Assembly: GCA_048885925.1 (NCBI GenBank)
Contig: JBHLLG010000010.1
Coordinates: 831-64,830, forward strand
From: Candidatus Hermodarchaeota archaeon
GTDB taxonomy: Archaea; Asgardarchaeota; Lokiarchaeia; Sigyniarchaeales; SOKP01
Direction of reading: 5' to 3'
Length of the DNA stretch: 64,000 nucleotides
Below, one piece after another: positions 10,860-44,035 of the stretch; position 1 is the first letter of the stretch; each line of letters opens with the position of its first letter. Under the pieces are notes generated by a model that worked only from the letters and a program-made list of their open reading frames with translations, made no database searches and was not told where the DNA came from. The position numbers and the translations under genes were made by a program.

Positions 10860-12248
10860 ATGTCAAAAACAGGAATGGAAAGGCTTGAAGAATTAAAAAA
10901 AGATATTTTTAAATGTATTCATTGCAAAGCATGCCGATTTGCCTATTCTGGAGAACCTAGCAGGAAAGGAATAGGAGAATTTAAAGGTAAACAACAAACT
11001 GTTCTTTATGAAGGTATGATAGATGCTTGTCCTGCAGGTATAGAATATGGTTGGGAAGCGTTCTGGAATGCAGGTAAGATGTGGATTGCAAGATGCATTC
11101 TAAACGACGATTTAGAATTTTCTGAAGAAGTTAGGGATGTTTTAATGCCTTGTATTACATGTGGACAATGTTCAGCTCAATGTGAAAATAAGGTTCGCAC
11201 GGTAGATATTATAGAAGCTCTACGCGCTGCATGTAAAGAGGCAGGGGTCCCTATGATCGAAAAACATCAATTAGTTGAGCGTCTGACTAAGGAATTAAAC
11301 AATCCATATGGTGGAAAAGCAGAAGAACGATTTAAATGGGCAAAAGAAGCTGGTTTAGAGAAATATATTAATAATAAAGAAGCTAAGGTTGGCTATTTTG
11401 TCGGCTGTACAGCAAGTTATAGGCAAATGGAAATAGCCGCGGCAACTTGTAAGATTTTTGAACAGTTAGGGATCAACTTTAAATTAGTTGAGGATGAAGT
11501 ATGTTGTGGAAGCCCATTCTTTAGAGTAGGTGCTGTTGATACTGCTCAAGAGTTAATGAATAAAAATATTGAAGCTTTTAAAAATTTAGATTTAGTGTTT
11601 TTTAGTTGCGCGGGATGTTATAAGACTTTTACAAATGATTATCCTAAATGGTCAGTAGAAGGTAAAATTCCTTTTAAAACTATGCATGCATTTGAATTAA
11701 TTGCTCGACTAATTACGGCAGAAAAAATCAAATTTAAACCAAATAAGAATTTAAAAGAAAAAATAGTTACTTATCATGATCCATGTCATCTTGGAAGGCA
11801 TATAGCCTTAGAAATAGAACAGAGTATAATAGAAGAATCTAAGAATCTAATGATGGATAGTCGAAAAATTAAACAAGCAATTGATGCGTGGTATGAAGTT
11901 CCTCGAATTATATTAAGACAATTGGAACAAGATGTTGGTATTAAGTTTAAAGAGATGTATCGAATAAAACTAGATAGTTTCTGCTGTGGAGCTGGTGGAG
12001 GCGTAAGGGCAGGTTATCCCGATTTTTCATTGAGAACTTCAAGTTTACGATTAGATGAAGTTAATGCGATTGGTGCTGACATAGTTACAACCGAATGCCC
12101 ATTTTGCTATAGGAACCTTTTTGATGCAAATGAGCAATTTAAACATGGTGTATTAGTATACGGCTTAATTCAAATGATTGATGAATTTAAGCTCTTAGAG
12201 ATTAAAGAAAAACCTACATTGGCAGAAATTTTAAAGATGAAGGACTGA
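10860..12248 (+). CDS. (Fe-S)-binding CCG-domain oxidoreductase subunit (GlcF/HdrD-like)
   Basis: CIHCKACRFAY and CITCGQCSAQCE clusters. Two CCG-type regions: YFVGCTASY...VCCGSPF and YHDPCHLGR...FCCGAGGGV...TECPFC. GGAGG lies 9 nt upstream of the ATG. Confidence 0.85.
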   Translation: MSKTGMERLEELKKDIFKCIHCKACRFAYSGEPSRKGIGEFKGKQQTVLYEGMIDACPAGIEYGWEAFWNAGKMWIARCILNDDLEFSEEVRDVLMPCITCGQCSAQCENKVRTVDIIEALRAACKEAGVPMIEKHQLVERLTKELNNPYGGKAEERFKWAKEAGLEKYINNKEAKVGYFVGCTASYRQMEIAAATCKIFEQLGINFKLVEDEVCCGSPFFRVGAVDTAQELMNKNIEAFKNLDLVFFSCAGCYKTFTNDYPKWSVEGKIPFKTMHAFELIARLITAEKIKFKPNKNLKEKIVTYHDPCHLGRHIALEIEQSIIEESKNLMMDSRKIKQAIDAWYEVPRIILRQLEQDVGIKFKEMYRIKLDSFCCGAGGGVRAGYPDFSLRTSSLRLDEVNAIGADIVTTECPFCYRNLFDANEQFKHGVLVYGLIQMIDEFKLLEIKEKPTLAEILKMKD

Positions 12249-12249
12249 A

Positions 12250-12285
12250 TTTTTTACTCCTCTAATTTTTTTTATTTTATTCTTG
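12250..12285 (+). terminator. oligo-T tract (archaeal-type terminator candidate)
   Basis: Runs of T6 and T8 immediately after the TGA stop at 12246-12248. The general AT-richness makes this weak evidence. Confidence 0.3.
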
Positions 12286-12402
12286 TTTCTTTGAAAGTAT
12301 TAGATTTGTTGATTAAACTTATAGGGATATTGAATCACATTTAAAAGCTAAATACACTTAATTTTTATTTAAATAGTTTTATTATCTTGAGAGTGAAATT
12401 TC

Positions 12403-13911
12403 ATGAATCGTAAAAAACTTATACCTATTATTTCAGCAGGAATTATTATTATAATCGTAATAGCATTAATTGTTATATTTATTCCATTTGGAGGAAAACG
12501 AGCAGTAGGTGCAAGAAAAGCAATAATTCTTTCCAGTGCAAATGATTATTATAGAAAAGAGGGAGAACCTGATTTCAATAATGGAGAAGATGGGAAATTT
12601 GACGGTGAACCCTTTCCATCTAAGTGGATAGAAGATTATAAGAACAATAGTTATGGAGGCATTGATAGCTCTATACCTGGTCATAACACTCCTGGAGTAA
12701 TACAATTAATTGTAACTGCTCCTGCTACGCTTAAATATGTTAATACGGAGTTTGTATATAATTGGACGAAATATTATCCATTAATTAAATATGCAGCATA
12801 TAATCTTTCTGCTTGGGTAAATATAACAACTAATATAAACACACCACCAATTTTTCCTGCAATAATAGTACCTTTTACTGGCGCTGGTGCAAGAATAGGA
12901 TTACGATGGATAAATTCTAGCAATGATATTGTAAGAACAGATTGGTCAGAGGGTATATTTGGACCCTTTATAGGTTGGACTTTTCTAAATGTAACGGGTA
13001 TCGCAGATAATTCTACTTTAAACGATATTACCCAACTGCATTTAGTTTTAGCAGTTGAGGGTAATATGACGGGTACTACCATGGTGCTTTTTGATGACAT
13101 TAAAGTAGAATATTGGTTCCCACCTCCAATACCAAGCCCTCCTCCTAGTAATGTAGATTCAGATGGGTTTCCTGCTCAAGCACTCCAAGTATACTGGGTT
13201 CTAAAAAATCATGGATACACTGATGATAATATCTTTCTAATGTTGTATCATACGAATGATAATATAATAGACATAAATGCTAATGATGGAATACCAAATG
13301 ATTTAGTTGGTGCAGTAGTTGATGTAGAGAATGATGATGTGAATGCAAGTAGATTTAAATATGAATTAGACATTTCAAGTTCAGGTTCATTTGCATCCAA
13401 CATTAAACCCAATGATCAATTAATAATTTTTATGACTGATCATGGCTCAAATAAAGTTCTTGGTGGGGGAAATGCTACATTTCATTTTGAAGCAGATGAT
13501 AGCTATATTTCTGAAATGGAATTTTATAATCTTGTAAAACTGATTAATTGTAAACGAATATTGATAAACATTGACAGTTGTTTTAGTGGAAACTTTTTAA
13601 ATCAAGACTCTAACATTGGGTTAAGTTGGTATAATATACCTAATTCGATTCTAGTCACAGCAAGTTCTGATAATCTAGCATGGAGTTGGCGAAATGTCTA
13701 CAATGGAGATGGTTTTGCTGGATCTTGGTTCTTTCATCATTTTTGGAATCAATTAAATCAAAGTCAAACAATAGGATCTGCTTTCGATTTTGCTAAAAAT
13801 TATATTCCGGTAGGGTATGTGAATTCTGTATTCGAAATTCAAAACCCTTTAATACAAGATAATTTAGGGATAAAAGACACATGGTCTTTCACCAATACTC
13901 CTTCACTATGA
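12403..13911 (+). CDS. membrane-anchored extracellular peptidase, C13 (legumain/GPI8-like) family, with N-terminal jelly-roll/CBM-like domain
   Basis: N-terminal TM (IPIISAGIIIIIVIALIVIFIPF). A CBM4_9-like module ends in MVLFDDIKVEYW. The linker is PPPIPSPPPS. The C13 catalytic dyad contexts are LIIFMTDHGS (His-Gly) and ILINIDSCFSGNF (Cys), and LKNHGYTDDNIFLMLYHTND resembles legumain N-terminal strand 1. Many NxS/T sequons. Confidence 0.7.
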   Translation: MNRKKLIPIISAGIIIIIVIALIVIFIPFGGKRAVGARKAIILSSANDYYRKEGEPDFNNGEDGKFDGEPFPSKWIEDYKNNSYGGIDSSIPGHNTPGVIQLIVTAPATLKYVNTEFVYNWTKYYPLIKYAAYNLSAWVNITTNINTPPIFPAIIVPFTGAGARIGLRWINSSNDIVRTDWSEGIFGPFIGWTFLNVTGIADNSTLNDITQLHLVLAVEGNMTGTTMVLFDDIKVEYWFPPPIPSPPPSNVDSDGFPAQALQVYWVLKNHGYTDDNIFLMLYHTNDNIIDINANDGIPNDLVGAVVDVENDDVNASRFKYELDISSSGSFASNIKPNDQLIIFMTDHGSNKVLGGGNATFHFEADDSYISEMEFYNLVKLINCKRILINIDSCFSGNFLNQDSNIGLSWYNIPNSILVTASSDNLAWSWRNVYNGDGFAGSWFFHHFWNQLNQSQTIGSAFDFAKNYIPVGYVNSVFEIQNPLIQDNLGIKDTWSFTNTPSL

Positions 13912-14112
13912 TTAATTATTAATCTAATCTCTTAATTTTTCAAAGATTTTTTTTAAATTTATTTTATTAATATTAGAGGTCAAATTCAAATCTTCTTGAA
14001 TAATCTGACCGCTTCCATTTTTATTCCCTTAAATTTATATTGCAATTAAAATTTATTCTAAATTAATGCAAAAAACATGTAAAAAAGAATTAAACTAAGG
14101 TTTAATAAAAAT

Positions 14113-14748
14113 ATGAAAAGGGCTCTCATTCACTCAATTCTTTTTTTAATACTATTTTTGCCTACTGTATTCATTCATTCTCTTTGTTTCAGAAATTTTT
14201 CAACAGAAGAAAAAACAATTCTTAATACTCATAAATTAATTCGATTTGCTCAAAGTTCTACTAATGATACGATATCCCCTATTATTACATTTATTGAACC
14301 ATCTATGAATAATACTATAATAAAGAAAAAGTCGTACACATTTATTGTAAATATAACTGACGAAAATCCTCCGTCTTATGGCAATGTAACTATACAAATT
14401 TCAAATTATACTAACATTATGTTTACTAGCAAAATGAATAATACTGAAGGCTATTTATGGAGTTTTACCTGGGATAACATCAGTTTATATCCTAACCAAT
14501 ATTATTCAGTTTATATTATTCAAATTTGGGCTAAAGATTCTTCCTCAAATGAAAATATAGGAACGTTTGAAGACTTTTATATTTATTTAAATATACCTAC
14601 TCAGCCTTCAGGTGTAATAACTGTAATAATTTCTCTTGTCATAGTTTCCTTCCTTATAAGCGGAATATTGGTATGTTTAGATAGAAAATTACTTAAAAAA
14701 CCATCTGATAAAAAAAGAGGGAAAATCAAAGGGATATTTGATGAATGA
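14113..14748 (+). CDS. secreted, C-terminally membrane-anchored surface protein (sequon-rich, Ig/beta-sandwich-like)
   Basis: Signal-peptide-like N-terminus (ALIHSILFLILFLPTVFIHS), at least 8 NxS/T sequons, and a C-terminal TM (VITVIISLVIVSFLISGILVC) followed by a basic tail. Confidence 0.55.
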   Translation: MKRALIHSILFLILFLPTVFIHSLCFRNFSTEEKTILNTHKLIRFAQSSTNDTISPIITFIEPSMNNTIIKKKSYTFIVNITDENPPSYGNVTIQISNYTNIMFTSKMNNTEGYLWSFTWDNISLYPNQYYSVYIIQIWAKDSSSNENIGTFEDFYIYLNIPTQPSGVITVIISLVIVSFLISGILVCLDRKLLKKPSDKKRGKIKGIFDE

Positions 14749-14938
14749 ATTTTTTGTATCATTTTGCTTATTTTGAATAAATTATAACACTTAATTTATC
14801 CAAAAATCCATTAAATATCTTTAAATTTCACTAAAATAAACATCCTTAAATATAAAATTTTTAATTCCAAAAGAATAAAAGTTAAAATTTTCATTAATTA
14901 CAAAATATATTATTGCCATTTTTGGGGTCTATATAATA

Positions 14939-17900
14939 TTGATTAATGTGGATGAGAAATCTGCTTACCCTTACATTACAAAATTTAAGAAGGAACCGTT
15001 TAAAACTTTCATTAGGCTAAAAAGTAAAGAAATTAGAAATTTTTATTATAGCGACCACAATAAATTAATTGAGTTTTATAATTTTTTTAATTATAATTTA
15101 TTAAATGATCCAGGAATTAATTTAGAGAATCTTTTCTGGTTTCTTTTATTCAGGAAATTTATCAAAGAAAATAAAAAAGAGAAAAGGGATGAGTTATTTA
15201 ATTTCATAAAAAAATGTGAAATACTTCAGAATGAACAATTAGGATTTAAAGAATCTCCACATTCAGAGAAAATTCCAGATATTTATTCAACATATTTAGC
15301 ATTATCCTCTTTAAAAGCATTAGATTTATTAAAAGAATATTTAGTTTCCAAGGATCATGACCAGATAAAAGGAGAGATTAAAAATTTCATATTGAGCTTG
15401 AAGAAAGGCAATAAATTTTTACATTGTCAAGATAAAGCATGTGTAATTTGTAAAAATATCTCACCAGCAATAACATTATATTATGTTATGGAAATATTTA
15501 CACTTTTGGGAATTGATGTTCGTGTTAATAGAGATCAATTCAGTTCCTACATTGGGGATAAGAAAAGGGATTTCTCTTTGATTTTTAGATTACTTTGCTT
15601 TAAATTCTTAGATCTCGAGTTTGAAGTAAAGGATAAAGAAATCCAATACCTTCAACAACTTCAAAATGAAGATGGAGGTTTTGCATTTAACGAAAATGAT
15701 GAGATTAATTCAACTTTATGGGTGGGCTATCTTCTTGAACTATATTCTTGGTTTATCGATTATAGGCCCTTAAGAACCTATTCTTTTATAAATAACAAAT
15801 TAAAAGAAATATTAAAAATTCAAGATGAATGGAATTCTAAAAAATTAAATGACGCTTCAAAGTTAGTAATTCTACTATCTTTTGTTTGGAAAAAGTTTAT
15901 TGATGAAATTGAAAGGATTTTATTCAAACAATTAGAAAAAGAAAAATATATTGATTTAAACCGATTAAAAATTACATTTGGATTCATAGAACAAATTGAA
16001 GAAATTACCTCATATATTAATCTTAATTATAACTTTAAATTAAAATTTATAGATAATGAAAAAGAATTTAAGAATTATATAGGCAATTTTAGTAATGGAA
16101 AGCAAAAATTCTTCCAAAATTTCTACGATAAACTAAATAATAATAGTGTAATATCACTCACTGGACTTATTAAACAATATAGAACACTTAATTATGAACC
16201 TTTAAAACTAAAAGAGGAAATTTTTCCTATTATACGAGATATGGTTAAAGTTAACCTATTTAAAGGTAAAATTAGAAAGAAAAAAACTTTTTTGGGTTTT
16301 AAAACAAAATATTTATTCTATTTGGATAATCAATTAAAAAGGATAATTGTGTCTAATATTGATATAAATGCGGAAGACATTTTTCAAGAAAAAGAAAGAC
16401 TAGAAGATATTAGAAATGATATTTATAACATGACCTTAAAGTTAAAAAATGTTAGTCATCAGATAAAAGAGGAAATAAACAGCTACCTTATAATTAATGA
16501 AGTTGATTATGCAAAAGAAAGATTGAAATTTACTTTAAGAAATGCATTAATGGAAGCAGGCTTTTTAAATGAAAATATTGAAAACTCATTTAATCAAATT
16601 CTAAAATATATTAATATTCAAGCTAATTTAGGAACTGAAATATCTCAATGGAATAAGAGATATGCGTTATTACAGAAAAAATTGGGAGAGTTAGATCTAT
16701 ATCTCAAGAATAAGATTGAAGAAAAAGAACAACTAAGAAATTTGAATAATATTTTAGATAATCTCAAAGAAAAATTATTCATTATTAAAGAAGATTTAAT
16801 AAAAAAGATGGATACCTTTAGAACCTCTTTTAATGAAAAACTTGAAACAGGATTCGATAATGCTAAATTTAATAGCCTTATACAAGATTTAGATCAAATC
16901 TCCCAGAAAGTGAGAAAATATGACAAAATCATATATAATGTTTCACAGCAGTTTATATCGAAAGAAAAAAAAATTGTTAAGAATCATAAAAAAGTAATTG
17001 CCAATTGGATAAGCATCAAAGAGAAATTTGATAATGAGTTTAAATTTTATACTGATGGATTCCAGTTTTTTAATATCAATTTAAAAAAAATAATAGATAT
17101 AAATAATCAATTAAATGCTGATCTTGAAGATATTGAAGTAAAGGTTAATATAAAAATCAAATCTAATGAATTTCAAGATGCTTTTAATTTTATTAAAAAA
17201 GAATCAGATGCTTTACTAAATCAGAGGATTAATGAAATCAAGGACCTTAAATCTATTATTAATCAAGAATTAAAAAGTAAACAAAAGCTCAATTTACTTT
17301 TTCATCATTTACAGGACAAGTTGGAAAGTTTAGAAATTAATATAATTGAAGTAATAGCAAATCAAACTAAAAATGTAAAGGATAAAATTTTAGAAGAGAG
17401 AAACCGCTCAAGTATAGAAGATTTTGATAATTTTGTTTCTCAAGAGATTATTAATCTCAAATCTAAACTAAATAGCATCAAAAATAATTTAATAAATTTA
17501 TCCTTCTTAAAAATTGAAGATGTTAATAAAGAATTTGATATTATACAAGCTGATTTTAATAAAAGCAAAAAGGAATATTCAAAAAAGTTAAATGATTGCA
17601 TTAAAGCTATCAAGGATTTTAATGAAAAGTCAAAATTAACAATTATACAATGGGAAAAATTCAATGATTTTTTCAATAATGAGATTCCAGTTTTAAAAAA
17701 TAACTTTATTAATCGAATTATTTTAAATGAAATTTATAAATTAACTACTAAGAAAAAAACAAATATCGTTAAATTAACGGATCTAAAAAATGAAACTAAA
17801 TTATCATGTAAAATCCTCATAAACAAATTAAAAGATATGATTGATATTTCGAAGATTAATGCTGAACTTAATGAGCGGGATAAAACAGTTTTGGTTTATA

Positions 17901-19348
17901 CTGATTCCTATTACTTAAATAAAGAACTACAAAATTATGTAGACAATAACATATTAAAATTAAATAGAGAGAGGATAGGTAAGATTTTAGCTCTATATGA
18001 TTCGAGTATTAGAAATCGAACATTGAATGTAAATATGTTAGAATTAAAGAATAGAATTAAGGATTTAAAAATTTTTGACGATGTTATTCCTCAACAATTC
18101 AGTGAAAAAGTTAAAGAACTTCAAGTAAATCAAGAAAGAGACGACTTTATAGAAATTAAAAAAAATTTTGAATCGATTTTAAAAAATAATAAAATAGCTA
18201 TAAATAAAATAATATTTAATATAGACCTCTTTAATAATGTCCAGAATTTCATCAATCAGCAGTTTAATACCCTGAATGCTGAATTGAATCAATTTTTAAT
18301 TAAAATTTTCAAAACCGTAGAGGATACTAATAATTACATAAAAATCCAAGAGACTTTAGAAAATAAAAAGAAATTTTTTAATGAAAATTTTAAGCAATCT
18401 CAAATTAAGATAGAGGAGAAAATCAATTCATTAGTAAGTAAAACAGTTAATTCAGGAAATTTAGAATCTGAGATAAGAGAATTATATGTGAAAGTAAAAA
18501 ATAATTTTTTAGAGGAATATGACAACAAAATCCAAAAAGTTAATGATCGAATTGTTTCATTGAAGAATGAATCATATAGGGAACAAATTACATCTTTAAT
18601 TAATGAAAATAAATTATATTTAAGCCAATTGCTTGGTAATTTAGAAAGAAAAGTAGAAGATAATATAGAAATTAAAGAATTTAAGAAGAGTAATGTAATA
18701 ATCCAGAAAAGAGCTAAAAGTATTGAAATGGAGATAAAAGAGATTAACAAAAAAATTGAGACTTCAATAAAGGATCTTAACAAAAAATCAATTAATTTTT
18801 CTCAAATATCTACATTTATACTCGAAGATTATTATAAATTTATTTCAGAATATTCAGAAATTCTATCTGAAAAAGTAAAAGCTATGGAACGATTAATTGT
18901 AAAATCCTATATCGAAATGACAATTAAAGCTGTATCAAATGAATATTTGACTATTGGATTTTTAAATAATGAATTAAAAATTAAAAAGAAGAATATTCAA
19001 GATCATTTATTATTTCTTATTAGTTCAGGAGAATTAAAGGGCAAATATGATCCTCGTTTTGGAATATACTATGAAAATCCTGAAATATTAGATGAATTAG
19101 ATGCTACTGAATTAGAAGTAATAAAGAGTACTAATTATAAAGTAAGTATGATGCTTCGTCATTTTAAAAATTTTGCTAGTCAATATGGAAGTATTATAGC
19201 CTTTTTTGCTTCAATTATTACCATTTCATATTATTTATTCCTTTTTAGTGGAAATAATCCAGCGGTAATAGCATTGCCCATCATTGCTATCATCTTAATT
19301 TTGAGCCTTTACTTCTTAAGGAAAGAAAAAGAGGAAAAAATCAAATAA
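14939..19348 (+). CDS. giant (1469 aa) tail-anchored coiled-coil protein with N-terminal prenyltransferase/terpene-cyclase-like alpha-alpha-toroid repeats
   Basis: Single uninterrupted ORF with a TTG start. N-terminal ~330 aa carry repeats of the PFTB type: FIKKCEILQNEQLGFKESPH...DIYSTYLALSSLKAL and IQYLQQLQNEDGGFAFNEND...STLWVGYLLEL. A ~1000-aa K/E/N/I/L-rich heptad-like region follows. The C-terminus has two hydrophobic segments (IIAFFASIITISYYLFLF, AVIALPIIAIILILSLYFL) and then RKEKEEKIK. Confidence 0.75.
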   Translation: MINVDEKSAYPYITKFKKEPFKTFIRLKSKEIRNFYYSDHNKLIEFYNFFNYNLLNDPGINLENLFWFLLFRKFIKENKKEKRDELFNFIKKCEILQNEQLGFKESPHSEKIPDIYSTYLALSSLKALDLLKEYLVSKDHDQIKGEIKNFILSLKKGNKFLHCQDKACVICKNISPAITLYYVMEIFTLLGIDVRVNRDQFSSYIGDKKRDFSLIFRLLCFKFLDLEFEVKDKEIQYLQQLQNEDGGFAFNENDEINSTLWVGYLLELYSWFIDYRPLRTYSFINNKLKEILKIQDEWNSKKLNDASKLVILLSFVWKKFIDEIERILFKQLEKEKYIDLNRLKITFGFIEQIEEITSYINLNYNFKLKFIDNEKEFKNYIGNFSNGKQKFFQNFYDKLNNNSVISLTGLIKQYRTLNYEPLKLKEEIFPIIRDMVKVNLFKGKIRKKKTFLGFKTKYLFYLDNQLKRIIVSNIDINAEDIFQEKERLEDIRNDIYNMTLKLKNVSHQIKEEINSYLIINEVDYAKERLKFTLRNALMEAGFLNENIENSFNQILKYINIQANLGTEISQWNKRYALLQKKLGELDLYLKNKIEEKEQLRNLNNILDNLKEKLFIIKEDLIKKMDTFRTSFNEKLETGFDNAKFNSLIQDLDQISQKVRKYDKIIYNVSQQFISKEKKIVKNHKKVIANWISIKEKFDNEFKFYTDGFQFFNINLKKIIDINNQLNADLEDIEVKVNIKIKSNEFQDAFNFIKKESDALLNQRINEIKDLKSIINQELKSKQKLNLLFHHLQDKLESLEINIIEVIANQTKNVKDKILEERNRSSIEDFDNFVSQEIINLKSKLNSIKNNLINLSFLKIEDVNKEFDIIQADFNKSKKEYSKKLNDCIKAIKDFNEKSKLTIIQWEKFNDFFNNEIPVLKNNFINRIILNEIYKLTTKKKTNIVKLTDLKNETKLSCKILINKLKDMIDISKINAELNERDKTVLVYTDSYYLNKELQNYVDNNILKLNRERIGKILALYDSSIRNRTLNVNMLELKNRIKDLKIFDDVIPQQFSEKVKELQVNQERDDFIEIKKNFESILKNNKIAINKIIFNIDLFNNVQNFINQQFNTLNAELNQFLIKIFKTVEDTNNYIKIQETLENKKKFFNENFKQSQIKIEEKINSLVSKTVNSGNLESEIRELYVKVKNNFLEEYDNKIQKVNDRIVSLKNESYREQITSLINENKLYLSQLLGNLERKVEDNIEIKEFKKSNVIIQKRAKSIEMEIKEINKKIETSIKDLNKKSINFSQISTFILEDYYKFISEYSEILSEKVKAMERLIVKSYIEMTIKAVSNEYLTIGFLNNELKIKKKNIQDHLLFLISSGELKGKYDPRFGIYYENPEILDELDATELEVIKSTNYKVSMMLRHFKNFASQYGSIIAFFASIITISYYLFLFSGNNPAVIALPIIAIILILSLYFLRKEKEEKIK

Positions 19349-19391
19349 TTATTAAATTACGCTTTTTGGTAAATTAGAATAAAGTTATTAT

Positions 19392-21545
19392 TTAATTATA
19401 ATCCATAACAAAATGAACTTGATTTTCTAGCTTTTTTAAATATCCTAAGAAGCATGCTTGATTGAAGTGAACATTGAATTTATGTTCCATTATATCCTCC
19501 TCACGTGCAAGTTCTTGAAACTTATTAAAATCTATCTTACCGTTCAAACCATAGGTTTTAACGATATTAATCAAAATTTTTAAATTTTTGTTTAAATACC
19601 TCTTTTTTTTTTTAGAATTTTTCTTTCTAGTGCTTTTTAATTTAATAATTTTTTTCCTAAGGATACTCTCATCAAATTTCAGTAAATCAGATAAAAATGT
19701 TATACCATAGTCTTTAAAGTCTTTGTATTCTTTGCTATTACAGAACTCATCTAATTTAGTAATAATATCTTCTATCGTACGATTTGCGAAGCACATTTGT
19801 TCTATATCTTTCTTTTCTTTATAATTTTTGATATAGTCTAATTCTGAATATTGCTTTCCGTGAAGGGAAAATTCAATTTTTTTACGTTCTAAGTCATTGA
19901 TTAGATTTAAATGGTTCGTATCGGACAAAACTGTTTCCATGGAGCGCTCTTTCCTTCGAGCAACATAATAATAAGGAATGTCAATTGTTTCTTCAGTAAC
20001 AAGTATATAACACCTTCCTGGAGCAGATCTACCGGTTCTTCCACGTCTTTGAATTAGTCTAATTTCTGAAGGTACCGGTTCGAAAAATATAATAGCATCT
20101 ACATTAGGAATATCTAAACCTTCTTCAGCAACACTCGTAGCAATTAAAATATCTATAAGTCCTTGTCGAAATTCTTCTAAAATTTCTATCTGTAAATGTT
20201 GGGGAAATCCATTATCGTCCTTTTTCGTTGCTTGCCCTATGAATTTTTCAATTTTTAGTCTTTCTTTAAATTCAAGCTGTAATGAATTTTTAAGAAATTC
20301 AGCCATCTCTCGATATTGTGTAAAAACTAGAATTTTTTTATTATTAAATTCCTCAATCTCTTCTTTTATTATAGAAATTATTTTTTTTAATTTTGGATGA
20401 GACAAAATATTCTGTTCTTTATTTTGAATTGTCGTATTTATATAATAATAATTCTCAGAATTAATAATTCTTTTAGCAGATAATATATCTTTATTAGCTT
20501 TATATTTTATTTTATCCAAAAACGATTTAAAAAGAGAAATGTCTTGAGTTTCCAATAAATCTTTTGCATGAAGTATAGATATACAACTTGAACAATAAGA
20601 ATATACAGAAGGTATATCAATTTGATTCTCTTTCACAACATCTATAATTCTGGGTGATTTAAAATATAAACACTCATAGAACTCATCTTCTGATAAATTT
20701 AATTCATCTCCATTTTCATAATATAATGATAAAGTGAGGTCGCGTGACATCCCCAAAAAATCCAGTTTTGAATAATATGGTTTATTTGGAGGCAAAAGAT
20801 TACATTTTACAAACCATCTTAAATACTTTTCAAATAAATTATACCAAACAGCACTTAATTCCCTTAATCTAACAGGTAAATCTATTAAATGAATGTATGT
20901 ATCAATATCATGAATGTAATTTTTTACATCTTTATCTTGGCAATTTTTAAAGATAATATTTTCAATATATAAATTATCACATATTTGTTGAATACGTTCA
21001 TAATCCTTTCCTGGTGAGGCAGTTAATCCTAATATTAGTGGATCAGTGCACGTATTAACATATTCCTCTGATATAAAAGTATAGGCATAATTACCTTTAG
21101 TCTTATGAGCTTCATCGAAAATGATCAAAGCTATTTGCTTCAGATCGTATCTGTCCCTCATTAAATCATTTTTAATTACTTGAGGTGTAGAAATTATAAT
21201 CTTCGAGTTTTGAAATAGTTGAATTCTTTTCTCTGGAGAAATTTTTCCTGTAAATATAGTGATTTCTTCTGAATTAATGTCCAACAATTTTATACATGAA
21301 TGTTTATGTTGTGAGACTAAAGGACGTGTAGGAGCGAGAATGATGATTTTAGCCTTTGGATATTTTATTAAACAATTCGATATTAATAAAATACCTATTA
21401 TTGTTTTTCCTAAACCCGTTGGTAAAACAACTAATGAATTTTTATTTTTACAGCTAGACACAATGTTTTTTTGATAATCCCTATAATGAATTTGATTTTT
21501 TTTTAAGAAAGGACCATTTATGTATTGTTCATGCTCTGTTTGCAT
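19392..21545 (-). CDS. Hef/FANCM/Mph1-family SF2 helicase (no ERCC4 nuclease domain evident)
   Basis: Motif I VLPTGLGKT, Ia LAPTRPLVSQH, II FDEAHKTKGNYAY, III LTASPG, V ATSVAEEGLDIPNVD, VI EIRLIQRRGRTGR. This closely follows the archaeal Hef helicase pattern. The C-terminal ~180 aa are basic and lack the GDxnERKxxxD nuclease signature. Confidence 0.85.
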   Translation of the reverse strand: MQTEHEQYINGPFLKKNQIHYRDYQKNIVSSCKNKNSLVVLPTGLGKTIIGILLISNCLIKYPKAKIIILAPTRPLVSQHKHSCIKLLDINSEEITIFTGKISPEKRIQLFQNSKIIISTPQVIKNDLMRDRYDLKQIALIIFDEAHKTKGNYAYTFISEEYVNTCTDPLILGLTASPGKDYERIQQICDNLYIENIIFKNCQDKDVKNYIHDIDTYIHLIDLPVRLRELSAVWYNLFEKYLRWFVKCNLLPPNKPYYSKLDFLGMSRDLTLSLYYENGDELNLSEDEFYECLYFKSPRIIDVVKENQIDIPSVYSYCSSCISILHAKDLLETQDISLFKSFLDKIKYKANKDILSAKRIINSENYYYINTTIQNKEQNILSHPKLKKIISIIKEEIEEFNNKKILVFTQYREMAEFLKNSLQLEFKERLKIEKFIGQATKKDDNGFPQHLQIEILEEFRQGLIDILIATSVAEEGLDIPNVDAIIFFEPVPSEIRLIQRRGRTGRSAPGRCYILVTEETIDIPYYYVARRKERSMETVLSDTNHLNLINDLERKKIEFSLHGKQYSELDYIKNYKEKKDIEQMCFANRTIEDIITKLDEFCNSKEYKDFKDYGITFLSDLLKFDESILRKKIIKLKSTRKKNSKKKKRYLNKNLKILINIVKTYGLNGKIDFNKFQELAREEDIMEHKFNVHFNQACFLGYLKKLENQVHFVMDYN

Positions 21546-21701
21546 ATTATGAATAACTGCAAATTTATTATTTTTAAAAATAACATCGCTGTGAGATTTT
21601 TATAATATTAAATTATCTCATAACTAATAGAAGTTATTTATTAATTCAGAAATAAGTTAATAAATTCCAAGATAAATGAAGATATTTTGTTCTTAATAAA
21701 A

Positions 21702-22706
21702 TTAAACCGGGAAAAATAATATCTCTTTTTTTGTATCTTTCCGATTGATTAAATTCTTTTCTTCCAGCATTTTTAAAGTCAGGACAACCCACCCTCGAGC
21801 GACTTGATGCAAAAATCTACTATCATTAGGATAAATTGCTTTAATTATATTTTTGGGAGATATTCCATTTTCTTTACATTCACGAATGATATTTAGTATT
21901 TGCTTTTCCCGCTCTTTTCTATGGACTAAGATCTCATCAATTCTTTCCATTGGATTTTCAATAGGACTTCCATGGGCAGAGAAAATCAATTTAAGTTTCG
22001 GCAATTTCTGAATTTCCTCAATAGATTTTACATATGCATTAATATTAGAATTTGGAGGACCGAGCCAAGTTGTTATTGATCTCAAGATATTATCTCCAGA
22101 AAACAAAATGCCCTTCTCCTCATTATAAAGAGAAATATGATCTACAGCATGTCCAGGTGATGGAAAAATTTTCCAATTCTCACCATTGATTATGATCTCT
22201 GTGTTTTCTTCAAGAATTTCGTCAGGATTGTCTATATAACAAGCTCCATATATACGTTGGTAAAATAACCTTGAACCGATATTTCTTAAAAAATTAATTA
22301 GTTTACGAGATTTTTTTTTTCTGATTCTCAAATAGTCTTCATAAGCATCAGTTTCAAAACTTTTAATGAAGCTTTTCTTATTCTTTATAATTTCTGCGCT
22401 TTTTTTTGTTATCATTACCTTTATTCCTAAAACATCTCGTATTCGTTTTAAACCACTGAAGTGATCGGGATGGCAATGAGAAACAAGGATTCGAGTGATC
22501 TTAAAATCTTTATTTTGTTCCTTGAAATAGTTCTTAATTCTATTCACTTCTTTTATTAAATGTTTTACAGCTCTCTTGGTTCCATATCCTGCATCATAGA
22601 TTATTGCATCAGCACCAGCTAGGACATATATATTTTCAGGTGGCTTTATTGTACCAAAAGCACCTTTTTCCTTGATCAAAAAGATTCCCGGGTAAACTTC
22701 CTTCAC
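21702..22706 (-). CDS. MBL-fold metallo-hydrolase
   Basis: HxHxDH motif as VSHCHPDHFSG, then PSPGHAVDHISL and FSAHG. Confidence 0.85.
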   Translation of the reverse strand: MKEVYPGIFLIKEKGAFGTIKPPENIYVLAGADAIIYDAGYGTKRAVKHLIKEVNRIKNYFKEQNKDFKITRILVSHCHPDHFSGLKRIRDVLGIKVMITKKSAEIIKNKKSFIKSFETDAYEDYLRIRKKKSRKLINFLRNIGSRLFYQRIYGACYIDNPDEILEENTEIIINGENWKIFPSPGHAVDHISLYNEEKGILFSGDNILRSITTWLGPPNSNINAYVKSIEEIQKLPKLKLIFSAHGSPIENPMERIDEILVHRKEREKQILNIIRECKENGISPKNIIKAIYPNDSRFLHQVARGWVVLTLKMLEEKNLINRKDTKKEILFFPV

Positions 22707-22897: not shown

Positions 22898-23335
22898 ATG
22901 TATTGTCCTAAATGTGGTTCAAAAGTAGCTGATGAGGCAAAATTTTGCACTTTTTGTGGAGAACCCATTGAAGGTGAACGTATTCCTGAAAGTCAACCTA
23001 TCCAACCAACCCCATCAACACCACCATCCTATCAGGATTCATTACCAACTCCAGTGAAAAAATCGACAACTAGTGGCGGTATTGCACTTGGTATTATAAT
23101 TGCCTTAATAGTGGGTGGGGTTTTAATATATTTTGGATTTAGATCACTAGTTGGAGGCTATGCCTATACCACGGGATTAACCATGTTAATTATTGGTATT
23201 ATTTTTATGAGTTTCATATGTTGTTTTTGTAGTGGTTGTAGTAGTGGAAGACGTCGCGGAGGTTATTACGGTGGTGGTTGTGACTGTAGCGGTTGCGATT
23301 GTGGTGATTGCGACTGCGGAGGGTGTGATTGTTAG
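22898..23335 (+). CDS. zinc-ribbon membrane protein with C-terminal (x-G-C-D-C)4 Cys/Asp repeat
   Basis: N-terminal MYCPKCGSKVADEAKFCTFCGEPI, a Pro-rich linker, two TM segments, then the tail CCFCSGCSSGRRRGGYYGGGCDCSGCDCGDCDCGGCDC. Confidence 0.65.
   Translation: MYCPKCGSKVADEAKFCTFCGEPIEGERIPESQPIQPTPSTPPSYQDSLPTPVKKSTTSGGIALGIIIALIVGGVLIYFGFRSLVGGYAYTTGLTMLIIGIIFMSFICCFCSGCSSGRRRGGYYGGGCDCSGCDCGDCDCGGCDC
23272..23332 (+). repeat. four tandem 15-nt units encoding xGCDC
   Basis: ggt tgt gac tgt agc / ggt tgc gat tgt ggt / gat tgc gac tgc gga / ggg tgt gat tgt. Confidence 0.7.
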
Positions 23336-24946: not shown

Positions 24947-27925
24947 ATGGGTAAGGAACAGAAAAAATTGGCTAATATTTTTAGATTACTCAAAAAGATG
25001 ATTGAAGAAAATGAAGATTATAAAAGAGAAATCTATAATGAAGGCACAGGGATGAACTTTAATTCAAGAATTCTGTTTACAATTGAAGGAAATGAAACTG
25101 ATTATGTTGCCATTATTTTTAAGGATGGTAATATTGAGATTTTTGAAGAAAAGATTGAAGACCCATCAGTTAAATTCATATTCAAAACGGCCAGAGGTTT
25201 AGGAAAATTAAGCCGAGCATCTTCCCAAGAAATTGTCTATTCTCTTTTAAATAATAAAATCCAATATATTGGAAGCTTAAGTGATGTAACTAAATTTTTC
25301 TTTCTATTAAGTTATATACTCCTTAAACAAAAGGATGATTTTGATAAAAGGCAGGCTGAGAGAAAAAAACCAGAACTTTTACCGTTTGAGGATTTTACAG
25401 ATTGGGATAGCGCTACAAAACAAATGACACACAAATACTTAGGCTACAAGGTTGATAATGTAAAATATTTAGATGATCCCTATTTGAGCAAATACAACCT
25501 AAAAGACTTTAAGCGATTAAATTATCTGAAATATTGTCGTTTCAACACCCAAGTAGAAGTATGTCCTGAACGAGCTAAGCTTATCACAGAATTTGCTAGA
25601 AAAGAGGGTTACACACCTGAAGATGGCAATAAAGATCATCCCGAATTAAAAATGGGAAAAATAATTAATTATATTCTTTCCAATAAGGAAGCTTCCATCC
25701 AAGATTGGGATTATTTACCGGGTATTTCGACATCAAAACAGAGAGGAGCGTTAATTTACCCAGAATTTGGAGCAATAATTTTCTGGCCTGAACTATATTC
25801 AGCAGATTCCAGAGAACTTTATCCGCAATTAATTACACAAGAGACTATCGATATTCTTAATACAGAAGTCTTCCCATATTGGGCTGACCGTTGTTTAAGA
25901 GAATACACAAGGCAAATGACTGGAAATCAGCTTTCCCAACAATTAGACGAACTTTTTGTTTTTTATTTTATGTGGAAGACACAGGCTATTTCACACACAA
26001 TTCCTGGCTTTGAGACTTTCTTTAAAAGAGGTCTTGACGATCTTATTCAGGAAGCTAAGAAAAAAGAAGAAGAGATTAGCGAACAAGCTAAAAAGGATTT
26101 TTATAAAGGAATTCAATTAGCTTGTCAAGGTGTATTAACTTATGCTAAAAATTTAGCAAATGTAGTTGAACAAAAAGCAGCCGAAATAGTTGAAAGTAAT
26201 GCATCAGAGCAATCAATAAAAAGAAAAAGTGAATTAAAAAACATATCACACATTTTACATAATATTCCTGCGAAACCACCTGAAACACTTGAAGAGGCGA
26301 TAATTTCGCTTTGGATTATGTGGATAGCATTAACTATGGAAAACGCTCATATGGGATTATCGCTTGGTAGATTAGATAAGTTACTACAACCATTTTTCAT
26401 TTCAGATATGGAAAAAATCGAATCTGAAGAGGAGAAAGAAGAATATATAAAAAAAGCAGTTGAATTGATAGGGAGCTTTTTTCTACGGTGTTCAGACCAA
26501 GAACCCTTACTACCAGATATAGGAAATTATTTGTTTGGAGGTAGTGGTCAAGATTTTGCTATTACAGTTGGAGGTGTAGATTCAGAAGGAGCTTCGGCAG
26601 TTTGTGATATGACTTTCATCATTCTTAAGGCTGCAGAAATGCTCTCCATTCGTGATCCTAATCTAAACGCGAGATATTATCCTGGAATAAATTCAAAAGA
26701 ATATTTAGATAGATTATTAGAGGTGAATATAAATACACATGCTACTCCAAGTATTCACAATGATATCCAGATGATTAAAGCACTTACAAAAGTTGGATTT
26801 AAATTAGAAGATGCGAGAGGATGGGCTGCTACTGGATGTGTTGAACCGACTATATGTGGAAAACACTTCGGTCATACAAATAGTATGATGTTCAATGCTG
26901 TTGCTGCTATGGAAATGGCATTAAATAATGGATATCATCCTGTTGTAAGCATGAAGCGAAGAATTGGTCCTGAGACAGGAGATGTTGCTCAATTCCAAAA
27001 CTTTGATGCATTTTTAAATGCATATAAGGAGCAACTTCACTTTTTAGTTGAAAACAGTGTAGAATGTAATAATAATCTCGGTAAAGCGCACCAACTCTTA
27101 CATCCGTCACCTTTGCTAAGTTCTTTATTTGAGGGTCCTATGAAAAAGGGAAATGATTTAGTAAACGGTGGAGCAATTTATAATACTTCTGGAGTTGCTG
27201 TGATAGGCATCGCGGATATAATTGATTCTTTAAAAGTAGTTAAAACTCTTGTATACGATAAAAAAGAAATTGATTTTATAACTTTAAATGAGCATGTTAA
27301 AAATGATTTTTCTACTCCTGAAGGAGAATTATTGCTAAAAAGAATAAAATTAATCAAAAAATTTGGTACAGGTGATAAAGAAACGATCGAAATCGGTCAA
27401 AATGTAATAGATTTTCTTTACAATGACTTTTATTCACACAAGAATTATCGCGGGGGTCGTTATTTAACAGGATTTTGGAGTATGAGCAACCATGTGGCTT
27501 TTGGCACACTCTCAGGAGCTTTACCGAATGGTCGAAAAGCTAATAAACCGTTCACTCCCGGGTTAACCCCAACACCAGGAGGAAAAGATTTACTAATTCA
27601 AAATATACAATCTGTTGCAGCATTAGACACAGATAAAATGCCAAACAATCTAGCCTTTAATATTAAATTAATACCAAATGCAAATGATTTACATGAAGAA
27701 ACATTAAATCATTTTAATGGATATACCTCGAGTTATTTTGATTTAGGTGGAATGCAGATTCAATTTAATGTAGTGAGTACAGATACTTTAAAAGATGCTA
27801 TGGAACATCCCGAGAATTATGGTTGGTTAATTGTACGAATTTCAGGATATAATGCTTATTTCACGCAATTAAATAAGTACTTACAATTAGAGTTAATTGA
27901 ACGGCAAGAATTCGCAACTCATTAA
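24947..27925 (+). CDS. glycyl-radical enzyme (PFL2/glycerol-dehydratase-like eliminase class) with N-terminal SCP2-like extension
   Basis: Gly-radical fingerprint VRISGYNAYF near the C-terminus. Thiyl loop ATGCVEP, with Glu two residues after the Cys. The usual GRE N-terminus (CPERAKLITEF) begins only around residue 200. Residues ~35-130 show an SCP2-like pattern. Confidence 0.9.
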   Translation: MGKEQKKLANIFRLLKKMIEENEDYKREIYNEGTGMNFNSRILFTIEGNETDYVAIIFKDGNIEIFEEKIEDPSVKFIFKTARGLGKLSRASSQEIVYSLLNNKIQYIGSLSDVTKFFFLLSYILLKQKDDFDKRQAERKKPELLPFEDFTDWDSATKQMTHKYLGYKVDNVKYLDDPYLSKYNLKDFKRLNYLKYCRFNTQVEVCPERAKLITEFARKEGYTPEDGNKDHPELKMGKIINYILSNKEASIQDWDYLPGISTSKQRGALIYPEFGAIIFWPELYSADSRELYPQLITQETIDILNTEVFPYWADRCLREYTRQMTGNQLSQQLDELFVFYFMWKTQAISHTIPGFETFFKRGLDDLIQEAKKKEEEISEQAKKDFYKGIQLACQGVLTYAKNLANVVEQKAAEIVESNASEQSIKRKSELKNISHILHNIPAKPPETLEEAIISLWIMWIALTMENAHMGLSLGRLDKLLQPFFISDMEKIESEEEKEEYIKKAVELIGSFFLRCSDQEPLLPDIGNYLFGGSGQDFAITVGGVDSEGASAVCDMTFIILKAAEMLSIRDPNLNARYYPGINSKEYLDRLLEVNINTHATPSIHNDIQMIKALTKVGFKLEDARGWAATGCVEPTICGKHFGHTNSMMFNAVAAMEMALNNGYHPVVSMKRRIGPETGDVAQFQNFDAFLNAYKEQLHFLVENSVECNNNLGKAHQLLHPSPLLSSLFEGPMKKGNDLVNGGAIYNTSGVAVIGIADIIDSLKVVKTLVYDKKEIDFITLNEHVKNDFSTPEGELLLKRIKLIKKFGTGDKETIEIGQNVIDFLYNDFYSHKNYRGGRYLTGFWSMSNHVAFGTLSGALPNGRKANKPFTPGLTPTPGGKDLLIQNIQSVAALDTDKMPNNLAFNIKLIPNANDLHEETLNHFNGYTSSYFDLGGMQIQFNVVSTDTLKDAMEHPENYGWLIVRISGYNAYFTQLNKYLQLELIERQEFATH

Positions 27926-27959
27926 ATTTCCCTTTAAAATTAATATTACTCGAATTAAT

Positions 27960-43851: not shown

Positions 43852-44035
43852 TGAGCGTATCCTTATTAATTATTTATTTTTGTTATATTGTAACTAATGG
43901 ATTTTTTATTATAAAAATAATATCGTTCTAATTTATAGTATCATAATATCTTGATGTATTATTAAATATGAAATTAAATAGAATTGATAACCAAATCATA
44001 TAATAATAATTTTGTTTACTAATAGAATTGAAAAA

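Follow-up and report, generated by a model that had tools for sequence, protein, structure and literature searches.

A putative membrane-anchored modular scaffold with a toroid head and PCI-type winged helices in Lokiarchaeia

The window, a 64,000-nucleotide stretch of archaeal DNA, carries on its forward strand a gene for a protein of 1469 residues with the domain order basic N-terminal peptide, toroid, two winged helices (wH1 and wH2), rod, PCI/DDRGK1-type winged helix (wH3), rod, PCI-type winged helix (wH4), hairpin and basic tail:

14939..19348, + strand: whole gene, 1469 codons and stop, TTG start, ~175 kDa, pI 9.1
14939..15028, + strand: basic N-terminal peptide, aa 1-30, K-S-A-Y-P-Y-I-T-x-F-K-K-E-P-F, candidate docking motif (conservation)
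15056..15943, + strand: prenyltransferase-beta-like alpha/alpha toroid, aa 40-335, ~12-13 helices (Pfam, PDB profile, AF2, Foldseek)
15422..15451, + strand: H162-C163-x4-C168-x2-C171 in the loop of toroid repeat 2, candidate zinc knuckle (64 orthologues)
15947..16054, + strand: wH1, aa 337-372, compact winged-helix-like module that may be incomplete (DSSP assignments in the AF2 model: E337-339, H340-347, H353-363, E368-372)
16094..16354, + strand: wH2, aa 386-472, winged helix whose wing is long and basic (DSSP assignments in the AF2 model: H386-399, E404-406, H407-415, H424-437, E442-449, E456-464, E468-472)
16370..17755, + strand: helical rod 1, aa 478-939, nine helices (AF2, heptad scan)
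16550..16597, + strand: M-E-A-[DG]-F-L-N-E-N-I-E-N-S-F-N, aa 538-553, candidate interaction site (conservation)
17765..17896, + strand: wH3, PCI/DDRGK1-type winged helix, aa 943-986 (DSSP, Pfam, PDB profile)
17903..18934, + strand: helical rod 2, aa 989-1332, with a highly conserved block at aa 1009-1040 (AF2, conservation)
18944..19072, + strand: wH4, PCI-type winged helix adjoining the membrane, aa 1336-1378 (Pfam PCI)
19187..19333, + strand: C-terminal hydrophobic hairpin, TM1 aa 1417-1436, loop S-G-N-N-P, TM2 aa 1441-1465 (Kyte-Doolittle, AF2)
19334..19348, + strand: last residues of the basic cytoplasmic tail RKEKEEKIK, and stop (translation)

The initial annotation described a single uninterrupted 4.4-kb reading frame of about 20% G+C; the frame is indeed one intact gene, with a measured G+C content of 23.2%. 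The TTG start is supported by orthologues that begin with ATG and align with the protein from its first residue. The gene is real and under purifying selection: 1469 open codons would arise at the frame's own composition with a probability of ~1e-69, dN/dS is 0.13-0.18, the same colinear full-length frame is present in 63 of 80 fetched loci, and read coverage in the best DNA run is even, with 0 insertions or deletions reported. These values set the frame apart from AT-rich noise, give no indication of a frameshift and refute an artefact, be it a chance frame in an AT-rich stretch or several genes fused by misassembly, which has nothing beyond the low G+C in its favor and next to no probability. 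None of the contigs from three metatranscriptome runs of a related study matched the locus.

More than 120 full-length orthologues share 47-98% identity with the protein, and their length is fixed across Lokiarchaeia (1440-1500 aa), which agrees with a defined modular fold. The family is strongly conserved in at least 148 Lokiarchaeia species genomes, Helarchaeales included, whose titles all name Asgard archaea or an uncultured archaeon, except for one contig that is probably mis-binned. Among 1.84 billion cluster representatives, only 48 clusters match at E <= 1e-10; those not cut short measure 1390-1500 aa, and those looked up are named Promethearchaeota, Lokiarchaeota or Helarchaeota. Among the species genomes and the clusters looked up, we found no full-length orthologue from outside the class. 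The family is specific to Lokiarchaeia, with a fixed domain order throughout. In agreement with the earlier remark that no described prokaryotic family with this exact combination was known to its author, NCBIfam holds no model for it, source records name its members only 'hypothetical' or 'prenyltransferase/squalene oxidase repeat-containing', and we found no paper describing it; the family appears to be undescribed so far.

PFTB repeats had been proposed for the first ~330 residues, and several lines of evidence agree. Pfam PF00432 scores 27.9 bits on the window's protein (cut-off 26.5) and 36.6-51.4 bits on three orthologues, and profile-based comparison of the family with the PDB recovers RabGGTase beta (E = 2.7e-5). 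The AF2 model of residues 1-480 (pLDDT 84.9, pTM 0.81) folds aa 40-335 into an alpha/alpha toroid, and the top 22 Foldseek matches of this model are all protein prenyltransferase beta subunits (best E = 5.8e-5, TM 0.60), with those of RabGGTase, GGTase-3 and FTase as the best. In structure, the nearest folds are those of prenyltransferase beta subunits and class II cyclases.

The head is nevertheless probably non-catalytic for prenyl transfer. The prenyltransferase zinc triad is absent from the 64 orthologues and the PDB profile alignment: Tyr or Trp stands where RabGGTase beta has its zinc ligand Cys240, and no Cys or His past residue 220 reaches a majority among the orthologues. The cyclase DxDD motif occurs in only one of the 64. 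The toroid has a Cys/His motif of its own, in which H162 and C168 are retained in 100% of these orthologues, C163 in 98% and C171 in 69%, the last being replaced by Asp, Glu or Asn in ~30%. This motif persists in Helarchaeales relatives of 16-25% identity, and two divergent, otherwise complete members (P0150 and P0154) lack the whole loop. The four residues may bind a metal; the geometry of the cluster is read from secondary structure alone.

Such a near-invariant cluster could mark an active site, which would count against a purely structural head. The protein might accordingly be an active membrane-tethered isoprenoid enzyme, with zinc on these residues serving thiol alkylation or isoprenoid diphosphate chemistry, and with rods and winged helices positioning the toroid at the isoprenoid-lipid membrane. 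Prenyltransferases and LanC-type cyclases activate thiols with zinc bound to Cys and His, and the closest folds together with the persistence of the motif argue in the same direction. However, the canonical Asp/Cys/His site is not conserved, DxDD is missing, C171 is replaceable, the loss of the loop in two members fits a dispensable structural knuckle, and no alpha-subunit-like gene lies nearby. We therefore regard this enzyme as unlikely; the head probably binds a ligand, be it a peptide or an isoprenoid, without catalyzing prenyl transfer.

Winged helices had been recognized before, although as three modules; the models contain four. wH2 is consistently basic (mean net charge +6.3 in 55 orthologues), whereas wH3 and wH4 are near neutral in the same set, and wH1 matches no recurring family in the orthologue Pfam scan. 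wH4, the example given by the initial annotation, is of PCI type: Pfam PCI matches it in 63 of 64 orthologues (best 8.4e-7), and three orthologues exceed the cut-off (26-29 bits versus 22), while the window's own copy falls below it at 19.1 bits. wH3 is matched by Pfam PCI in 15 of the 64 (best 2.8e-5) and by Pfam DDRGK in 13 (best 4.2e-6), and DDRGK1 winged helices make up the five top PDB matches of its profile (best E = 0.0018). The DDRGK scores inspected are all below the Pfam cut-off (25.1 versus 27.8 bits), and the likeness to DDRGK1 is consistent though weak. A Foldseek search with aa 470-1469 ranks PCI subunits from the proteasome lid, eIF3 and CSN first, with weak scores (E about 5e-3, TM below 0.2). 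The eukaryote-typical PCI/DDRGK1 type of the winged helices had escaped the earlier reading. In the proteasome lid, CSN, eIF3 and DDRGK1-UFL1, PCI-type winged helices are surfaces for protein-protein docking and oligomerization, not sequence-specific DNA readers, and those of the Lokiarchaeia protein probably act likewise.

These matches also raise a more specific idea, an archaeal counterpart or forerunner of the DDRGK1-UFL1-type membrane adaptor, in which the arrayed PCI-like winged helices would bring a large cytoplasmic machine, for example the ribosome, to the membrane without UFM1. DDRGK1 and UFL1 have been suggested to originate in Asgard archaea, with UFM1, UFC1 and UFSP2 restricted to eukaryotes (Picchianti et al.; PMC10183829). 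The DDRGK1 hits of wH3, the PCI type of wH4 and the basic wH2 are compatible with such an adaptor. Besides the sub-threshold scores, however, the similarity spans only ~50 residues of one winged helix, the anchor sits at the opposite end from that of DDRGK1, and no UFL1-like region recurs (PF09743 in 1 of 64 orthologues, E = 0.022), which leaves the idea improbable.

The gene lies among housekeeping and metabolic neighbors in conserved synteny, and no conserved same-strand or operon partner was found around the locus. Its conserved downstream neighbor encodes a Hef-type repair helicase; this gene is convergent and hence not co-transcribed. Winged helices are common DNA binders, and the charge of wH2 and the proximity of Hef would suit a protein that uses its four winged helices to tether the chromosome or another nucleic acid to the membrane. 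Yet wH3 and wH4 are near neutral and of a type that usually contacts proteins, Hef is convergent, and the Pfam scans show no strongly recurring DNA-binding HTH family, so that we give this tether little credence.

In the AF2 model of aa 470-1469 (pLDDT 78.6), long (59-77 aa) and short (28-36 aa) helices alternate over short loops across the middle region, a pattern that resembles spectrin. The helices of rod 1 (~41, 28, 77, 30, 65, 36, 71, 32 and 45 residues) fit about four three-helix repeats, and those of rod 2 (~37, 27, 59, 34, 72, 36 and 45 residues) about three. Neither rod matches spectrin or another Pfam family, and none recurs in the orthologue Pfam scan. Weak in-register similarity between rod 2 and the end of rod 1 plus wH3 (hhalign P = 0.003) suggests an old duplication. 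About 1000 heptad-like residues had been noted here: strong heptad windows do cover 8.9% of the region versus 0.7% in shuffles, in a patchy manner, but the prediction gives helices of 28-77 aa and not one long coiled coil. Together, the rods would probably form about seven spectrin-like three-helix repeats and, with ~5 nm for each repeat, keep the head some tens of nanometres away from the membrane; both the three-helix packing and the rod length derive solely from secondary structure.

The two hydrophobic C-terminal helices and the short basic tail were called correctly at the outset; strict tail-anchoring was not, as the anchor is a two-helix hairpin with no single tail-anchor helix. The hairpin is retained in all full-length divergent relatives (16-25% identity), and the tail has a mean charge of +2.8 in 55 orthologues. 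The Kyte-Doolittle scan and the orthologue N-termini reveal a hydrophilic N-terminus without a signal peptide. Since the hairpin lies within the last 53 residues, it is probably inserted after translation, leaving both termini and ~1415 residues in the cytoplasm. This conforms to the proposed layout of globular N-terminal head, long helical middle and C-terminal anchor with a cytoplasmic bulk. Of the suggested golgin, tether or cytoskeleton-linker topology, head, helical middle and membrane anchor stand, but the continuous coiled-coil rod and the single-helix tail anchor do not. The AF2 model does not support a golgin-like rod, as its helices fold back on one another every 30-75 residues. An extracellular surface or S-layer-type protein on a C-terminal anchor, like many archaeal 'prenyltransferase/squalene oxidase repeat' proteins, is very improbable: the upstream genes do encode surface-type proteins, namely a type I membrane protein of 211 aa with abundant N-x-S/T and a C13 peptidase anchored in the membrane, and secreted C3 and alpha-2-macroglobulin have toroid domains, but the N-terminus lacks a signal peptide, the hairpin with its basic flanks places both ends inside the cell, and PCI winged helices, like a conserved Cys/His cluster, typically belong to cytoplasmic proteins.

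Two conserved, poorly modeled segments are the likeliest partner-binding sites. The N-terminal peptide (mean net charge +4.3 in 55 orthologues) has invariant K7, Y10, P11, Y12, T14, F16, K17, K18 and F21 and is disordered in AF2, with pLDDT below 50 over aa 1-19. The aa 538-553 motif, with invariant A540, F542, N544, N546, I547, E548 and F551, is among the most conserved of the protein (0.85 over aa 541-560) and lies at a helix break (pLDDT below 50 at residues 78-91 of the aa 470-1469 model).

We favor, with a probability of about 0.5, a cytoplasmic membrane-anchored modular scaffold or tether specific to Lokiarchaeia. The four winged helices of PCI/DDRGK1 type move the closest analogy of this scaffold from golgins to PCI-/DDRGK1-type membrane adaptors and spectrin-repeat linkers. 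Its head shares the alpha/alpha toroid and PFTB signature (PF00432) with prenyltransferase beta subunits, its best matches in sequence and structure, at only ~12% identity; unlike them, it has a different Cys/His motif in place of their zinc site, is fused to ~1100 more residues and a membrane anchor, and has no evident alpha subunit. With PCI subunits of the proteasome lid, COP9 signalosome and eIF3 (PF01399), it shares the PCI signature in wH4, less clearly in wH3, and in both a winged helix following a helical arm. However, it combines several modules in a single membrane-anchored chain, its arms are long antiparallel helices instead of TPR-like solenoids, the structural scores are weak, and nothing points to a complex like the lid, CSN or eIF3.

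DDRGK1 (UFBP1), which serves the UFM1 ligase UFL1 as its adaptor at the ER membrane, is likewise membrane-anchored and largely helical with a PCI-like winged helix, but has ~300 aa and an N-terminal anchor, as opposed to 1469 aa and a C-terminal hairpin. Spectrin-repeat linkers (nesprin/KASH; bacterial EzrA) similarly combine a globular head with a rod that has a membrane anchor on one side, and the long/short alternation with a 105-117-aa period is as expected of their tandem three-helix repeats. This likeness concerns a possible mode of working: neither sequence comparison nor Foldseek matches the protein to spectrin, nesprin or EzrA, a toroid takes the place of the CH domain, a KASH peptide is missing, and the anchor of EzrA is N-terminal. 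Golgins and other tail-anchored coiled-coil tethers are also large, cytoplasmic and mostly helical, with a C-terminal anchor and no signal peptide; in contrast to them, the Lokiarchaeia family lacks a continuous predicted coiled coil, is anchored by a two-helix hairpin and keeps a fixed length and domain order, with toroid and winged helices interspersed.

The giant gene encodes a 1469-aa protein whose anatomy is established by the comparisons described here and whose function we infer throughout. We propose that it acts as a cytoplasmic, membrane-anchored scaffold or tether, a reading to which we assign a probability of roughly 0.5. According to this proposal, a C-terminal hairpin would hold the protein in the membrane, helical rods would set its domains apart, winged helices of the PCI/DDRGK1 type would, by analogy, bring in partners or drive oligomerisation, and the toroid head together with a conserved N-terminal peptide would bind a ligand. 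Winged helices of this type act in that way in the proteasome lid, CSN, eIF3 and DDRGK1-UFL1.

The N-terminal peptide (aa 1-30) is basic, carries the conserved motif K-S-A-Y-P-Y-I-T-x-F-K-K-E-P-F and is not ordered by AF2. It precedes the toroid (aa 40-335), for which the initial annotation had proposed a prenyltransferase-like fold. In agreement, the window protein matches Pfam PF00432 with 27.9 bits (cut-off 26.5), three scanned orthologues reach 36.6-51.4 bits, and a PDB search with a profile of the family finds RabGGTase beta (E = 2.7e-5). The AF2 model of residues 1-480 (pLDDT 84.9, pTM 0.81) contains a toroid region with 12-13 helices, and the top 22 Foldseek matches of this model are all beta subunits of RabGGTase, GGTase-3 or FTase, followed by class II terpene synthases and the C3d thioester domain. 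The best match has E = 5.8e-5 and a target-normalised TM of 0.60 at about 12% identity, with a high RMSD of 6-10 Å. By sequence and fold, the head is a member of the PF00432 prenyltransferase/terpene-cyclase alpha/alpha toroid superfamily.

Membership in this superfamily raises the alternative that the giant protein is an active zinc-dependent isoprenoid enzyme, which we regard as doubtful. In archaea, homologues of both prenyltransferase subunits, alpha and beta, are common and of unknown activity, and the Rab-like GTPases of Asgard archaea have no prenylation cysteines (PMC4915359). The Asp/Cys/His zinc site of the catalytic beta subunits (D238/C240/H290 in RabGGTase beta) is not kept in the head: beyond residue 220, no position has a majority Cys or His among 64 orthologues, and in a repeat-level alignment D114 corresponds to Asp238 while the position of Cys240 is occupied by Tyr or Trp. 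By its zinc site, the head does not qualify as a catalytic protein prenyltransferase beta subunit. Nor does it qualify as a class II terpene cyclase: the DxDD motif is absent from the window protein and present in only one of the 64 orthologues. The CGEQ motif is also absent from the head, and no alpha subunit (PPTA repeats) was found among the scanned neighbours of the giant gene. The repeat-2 loop of the toroid instead carries H162-C163-x4-C168-x2-C171, with H162 and C168 present in 100%, C163 in 98% and C171 in 69% of the 64 orthologues. All four residues are kept in Helarchaeales relatives, and the loop is missing from two divergent, otherwise complete family members. The motif is probably a structural zinc knuckle.

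Four winged-helix modules (wH1-wH4) follow the head, where the initial annotation had rightly noticed such modules, counted three and missed their PCI-type signature. This signature is clearest in wH4 (aa 1336-1378), where 63 of the 64 orthologues match Pfam PCI (PF01399), the best at 8.4e-7. With the cut-off at 22 bits, three orthologues lie above it (26-29 bits) and the window copy lies under it (19.1 bits). wH3 (aa 943-986) is matched by PCI in 15 and by DDRGK (PF09756; best 4.2e-6) in 13 of the 64 orthologues. Judged by these profile matches, the giant protein holds PCI-type winged helices. A Foldseek search with the model of the C-terminal part (aa 470-1469) lists PCI subunits of the proteasome lid, eIF3 and CSN first, as weak matches (E 5e-3 to 0.1, TM below 0.2); in such subunits a helical-repeat arm leads into the winged helix. 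A PDB profile search with the whole of this region returned nothing significant.

The DDRGK match of wH3 that we inspected scores 25.1 bits, under the cut-off of 27.8, and a search of the PDB with the wH3 profile places DDRGK1 winged helices in all of the top five positions (best E = 0.0018, 8b9x). The resulting link to DDRGK1 is suggestive and below threshold. As a special case of the scaffold or tether reading, the giant protein could be a docking adaptor resembling DDRGK1/UFL1, which we consider unlikely. According to a published claim, the origin of DDRGK1 and UFL1 lies in Asgard archaea, where they would have functioned independently of UFM1 (PMC10183829). A more speculative extension, which we advance with little confidence, is that this single-chain, membrane-anchored array of PCI/DDRGK1-type winged helices represents the archaeal stock of eukaryotic DDRGK1/UFL1-type ER adaptors, or of PCI scaffolds generally; it might serve as the docking site of a large cytoplasmic machine on the membrane of Lokiarchaeia, where the head would read or modify a ligand.

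The two remaining modules are a compact wH1 (aa 337-372) and wH2 (aa 386-472), a canonical winged helix with a long wing that is consistently basic (mean charge +6.3). Neither yielded a reproducible Pfam family or a significant match in a PDB profile search. A basic winged helix would fit a protein that tethers nucleic acid, a role that we judge decidedly improbable for a chain whose matched modules are of PCI and DDRGK type.

Between the winged helices, the protein had been read as a coiled coil, in place of which the structural model shows helical repeats. The AF2 model of aa 470-1469 (pLDDT 78.6, pTM 0.36) is almost all helix, interrupted by short loops; the low pTM is expected of an elongated chain. 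The longest predicted helix spans 77 residues, turns recur every 28-77 residues, and the heptad signal of the middle region (aa 478-1332) is above that of shuffled sequences and patchy. Rod 1 consists of helices of 41, 28, 77, 30, 65, 36, 71, 32 and 45 residues and leads into wH3, and rod 2 of helices of 37, 27, 59, 34, 72, 36 and 45 residues leading into wH4. Spectrin repeats are tandem three-helix bundles of about 106 aa, and spectrin-type three-helix repeats in tandem yield exactly such an alternation of long and short helices, because each repeat's last helix is continuous with the first one of the repeat that follows. The helix period of the rods (105-117 aa) is near that of spectrin. From helix lengths alone, we infer a packing in which the rods would comprise about four and three three-helix repeats, respectively. 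Pfam scans of both rods in 64 orthologues returned scattered coiled-coil noise and no Spectrin match, and spectrin is absent from the top 50 Foldseek matches of aa 470-1469. Profile comparisons within the protein gave weak similarities (R1 versus R3, P = 4.5e-5; rod-plus-winged-helix units, P = 0.003; wH3 versus wH4, P = 0.0027) with alignments in register, which at most suggest an old duplication of a unit made of a rod end and a winged helix. The motif F-L-N-E-N-I-E-N-S-F-N (aa 542-552), among the most conserved of the protein, lies at a poorly modelled helix break.

The protein ends in a pair of hydrophobic helices (aa 1417-1436 and 1441-1465), with S-G-N-N-P as the linker between them, and a basic tail; the pair is kept in all full-length divergent relatives. 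The tail anchor of the initial annotation thus holds for its C-terminal position and for the lack of a signal peptide, and gives way to a two-helix hairpin within the last 53 residues in place of a single helix. A hairpin places both ends of the protein on the same side of the membrane, and its basic flanks indicate that this side is the cytoplasm. The following genes lie directly 5' of the giant gene and encode surface-type proteins:

12403-13911, + strand: Peptidase_C13 (legumain-like) surface-type protein of 502 aa with an N-terminal anchor
14113-14748, + strand: 211-aa surface-type protein rich in N-x-S/T sites, with a hydrophobic segment at the N-terminus and an anchor at the C-terminus

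Of 80 loci, only 38 showed the gene for the 211-aa protein and only 44 the peptidase gene. With the topology pointing to the cytoplasm, a surface role for the giant protein itself is very improbable.

The gene order in Lokiarchaeia is GlcD-like, GlcF-like, (C13 peptidase), (211-aa membrane protein), giant gene, convergent Hef helicase and MBL hydrolase, with Hef adjoining the giant gene in 65 of the 80 loci. None of the conserved neighbours, namely the GlcD/GlcF-like oxidoreductase pair on the 5' side and the convergent Hef and MBL hydrolase on the 3' side, suggests a pathway shared with the giant gene. The window is otherwise ordinary chromosome, encoding GluRS, iPGM, an amidase, an aldehyde dehydrogenase, acyl-CoA enzymes and a PFL-like glycyl-radical enzyme (992 aa; 24947-27925, + strand). 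The overlapping 318-aa ORF that follows the latter (27897-28853, + strand) may by position be its activating enzyme. In a 145-aa protein (22898-23335, + strand), a zinc ribbon at the N-terminus and a hydrophobic middle precede an unusual C-terminal tail of C-D-C-G/S repeats (CDCSGCDCGDCDCGGCDC). A 638-aa ORF without a Pfam match at E <= 1e-4 (41935-43851, - strand) sits in the window's second low-G+C stretch (42001-44000, 23.2%) and may be another lineage-specific protein. An Rfam tRNA match (49056-49183, + strand; 36.2 bits) has a length of 128 nt that implies an intron, consistent with an archaeal genome; ARAGORN, set to its bacterial mode, reported no tRNA across the whole window.

The giant gene spans 1469 codons in one uninterrupted frame that opens with TTG (14939-19348, + strand), the intact ORF initially described. 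Its G+C content is 23.2% against about 29% for the window, and since about one stop per ten codons is expected at this composition, the chance of 1469 open codons is about 1e-69. The TTG start is supported by orthologues with ATG starts that align from residue 1. Codon-level comparison of four orthologues gave a dN/dS of 0.13-0.18; the gene is clearly under purifying selection. The best DNA run for the locus covers the gene evenly, with no insertions or deletions reported. Together, the chance estimate, the dN/dS and this coverage rule out a chance ORF or an assembly chimera, leaving the artefact reading a negligible probability. In this best run, the sediment metagenome X1, many single-base variants and alternative unitig joins in 12000-22000 indicate several co-existing strains of the organism, and the joints listed at the locus stem from these strain variants. 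Three metatranscriptome runs of a related study contained no contig on the locus and are uninformative as to expression. Two antisense ORFs inside the gene (17440-17676, - strand, 78 aa; 18400-18783, - strand, 127 aa) are taken to be by-products of biased codon usage.

More than 120 full-length orthologues (47-98% identity, 1460-1521 aa) were found in a search of 5.8 billion proteins, their named sources being Asgard-labelled MAGs, and among GTDB species, each represented by one genome, at least 148 genomes contained relatives. A filter-free search of 1.84 billion representatives with the profile of residues 1-480 recovered only 48 clusters at E <= 1e-10; all those not cut short measure 1390-1500 aa, and the weaker matches consist only of ordinary prenyltransferase-repeat proteins about 330 aa long. 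The profile of wH4 and the hairpin matched nothing in the 5.8-billion-protein set beyond fragments of the same family. The most distant members (16-25% identity) are labelled Helarchaeota or Promethearchaeota. Some MAGs of one study, labelled Thor-, Hod-, Odin-, Hermod- or Heimdallarchaeota, carry orthologues of 56-64% identity. At the following loci, from MAGs labelled Thor-, Hermod-, Odin- or Hodarchaeota, the orthologues show 47-64% identity to the window protein:

L009, L011, L020, L025, L027, L028, L043, L057, L067 and L069 (JBHL* assemblies)

As these orthologues lie in the same gene order where flanks are available, we treat the phylum labels of this submission as unreliable. A contig binned as 'Candidatus Nanopelagicaceae bacterium' (L040, DATKTW010000086.1) carries the giant gene at 47% identity with the same GlcD-like and GlcF-like neighbours (87% and 77% identity), and is probably a Lokiarchaeial contig in the wrong bin. 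The family thus appears confined to the class Lokiarchaeia, including Helarchaeales, and widespread there, and the giant protein is among the largest conserved proteins of the class. Literature searches found no published description and NCBIfam has no model for it, in line with the initial impression of novelty; it is a real, class-wide, undescribed family that joins known folds in a new combination.

Few cultivable organisms are as closely related to eukaryotes as Lokiarchaeia, and the question on which the giant protein bears is how their membrane, protrusions and cytoplasm are organised. It joins modules typical of eukaryotic machinery, namely a prenyltransferase-beta fold, PCI/DDRGK1-type winged helices and possibly spectrin-like rods, in a striking architecture relevant to eukaryogenesis. 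If it is a membrane scaffold, it would offer a concrete handle on membrane-cytoplasm organisation in Asgard archaea and would make the claim of an Asgard origin of DDRGK1/UFL1 testable (PMC10183829). A catalytic head, if true, would bear on whether prenyl chemistry on proteins or lipids at membranes is older than eukaryotes.

The initial comparison with golgin-like tethers survives in part, without the golgin-like coiled coil and without strict tail-anchoring. Golgin-type tethers are built on a long continuous coiled coil, whereas the giant protein has helical repeats instead. Tail-anchored proteins have one transmembrane helix; the giant protein has two and is tail-anchor-like in position only. 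DDRGK1, finally, is a protein of about 300 aa with an N-terminal anchor, in contrast to the 1469 aa and C-terminal anchor of the giant protein.
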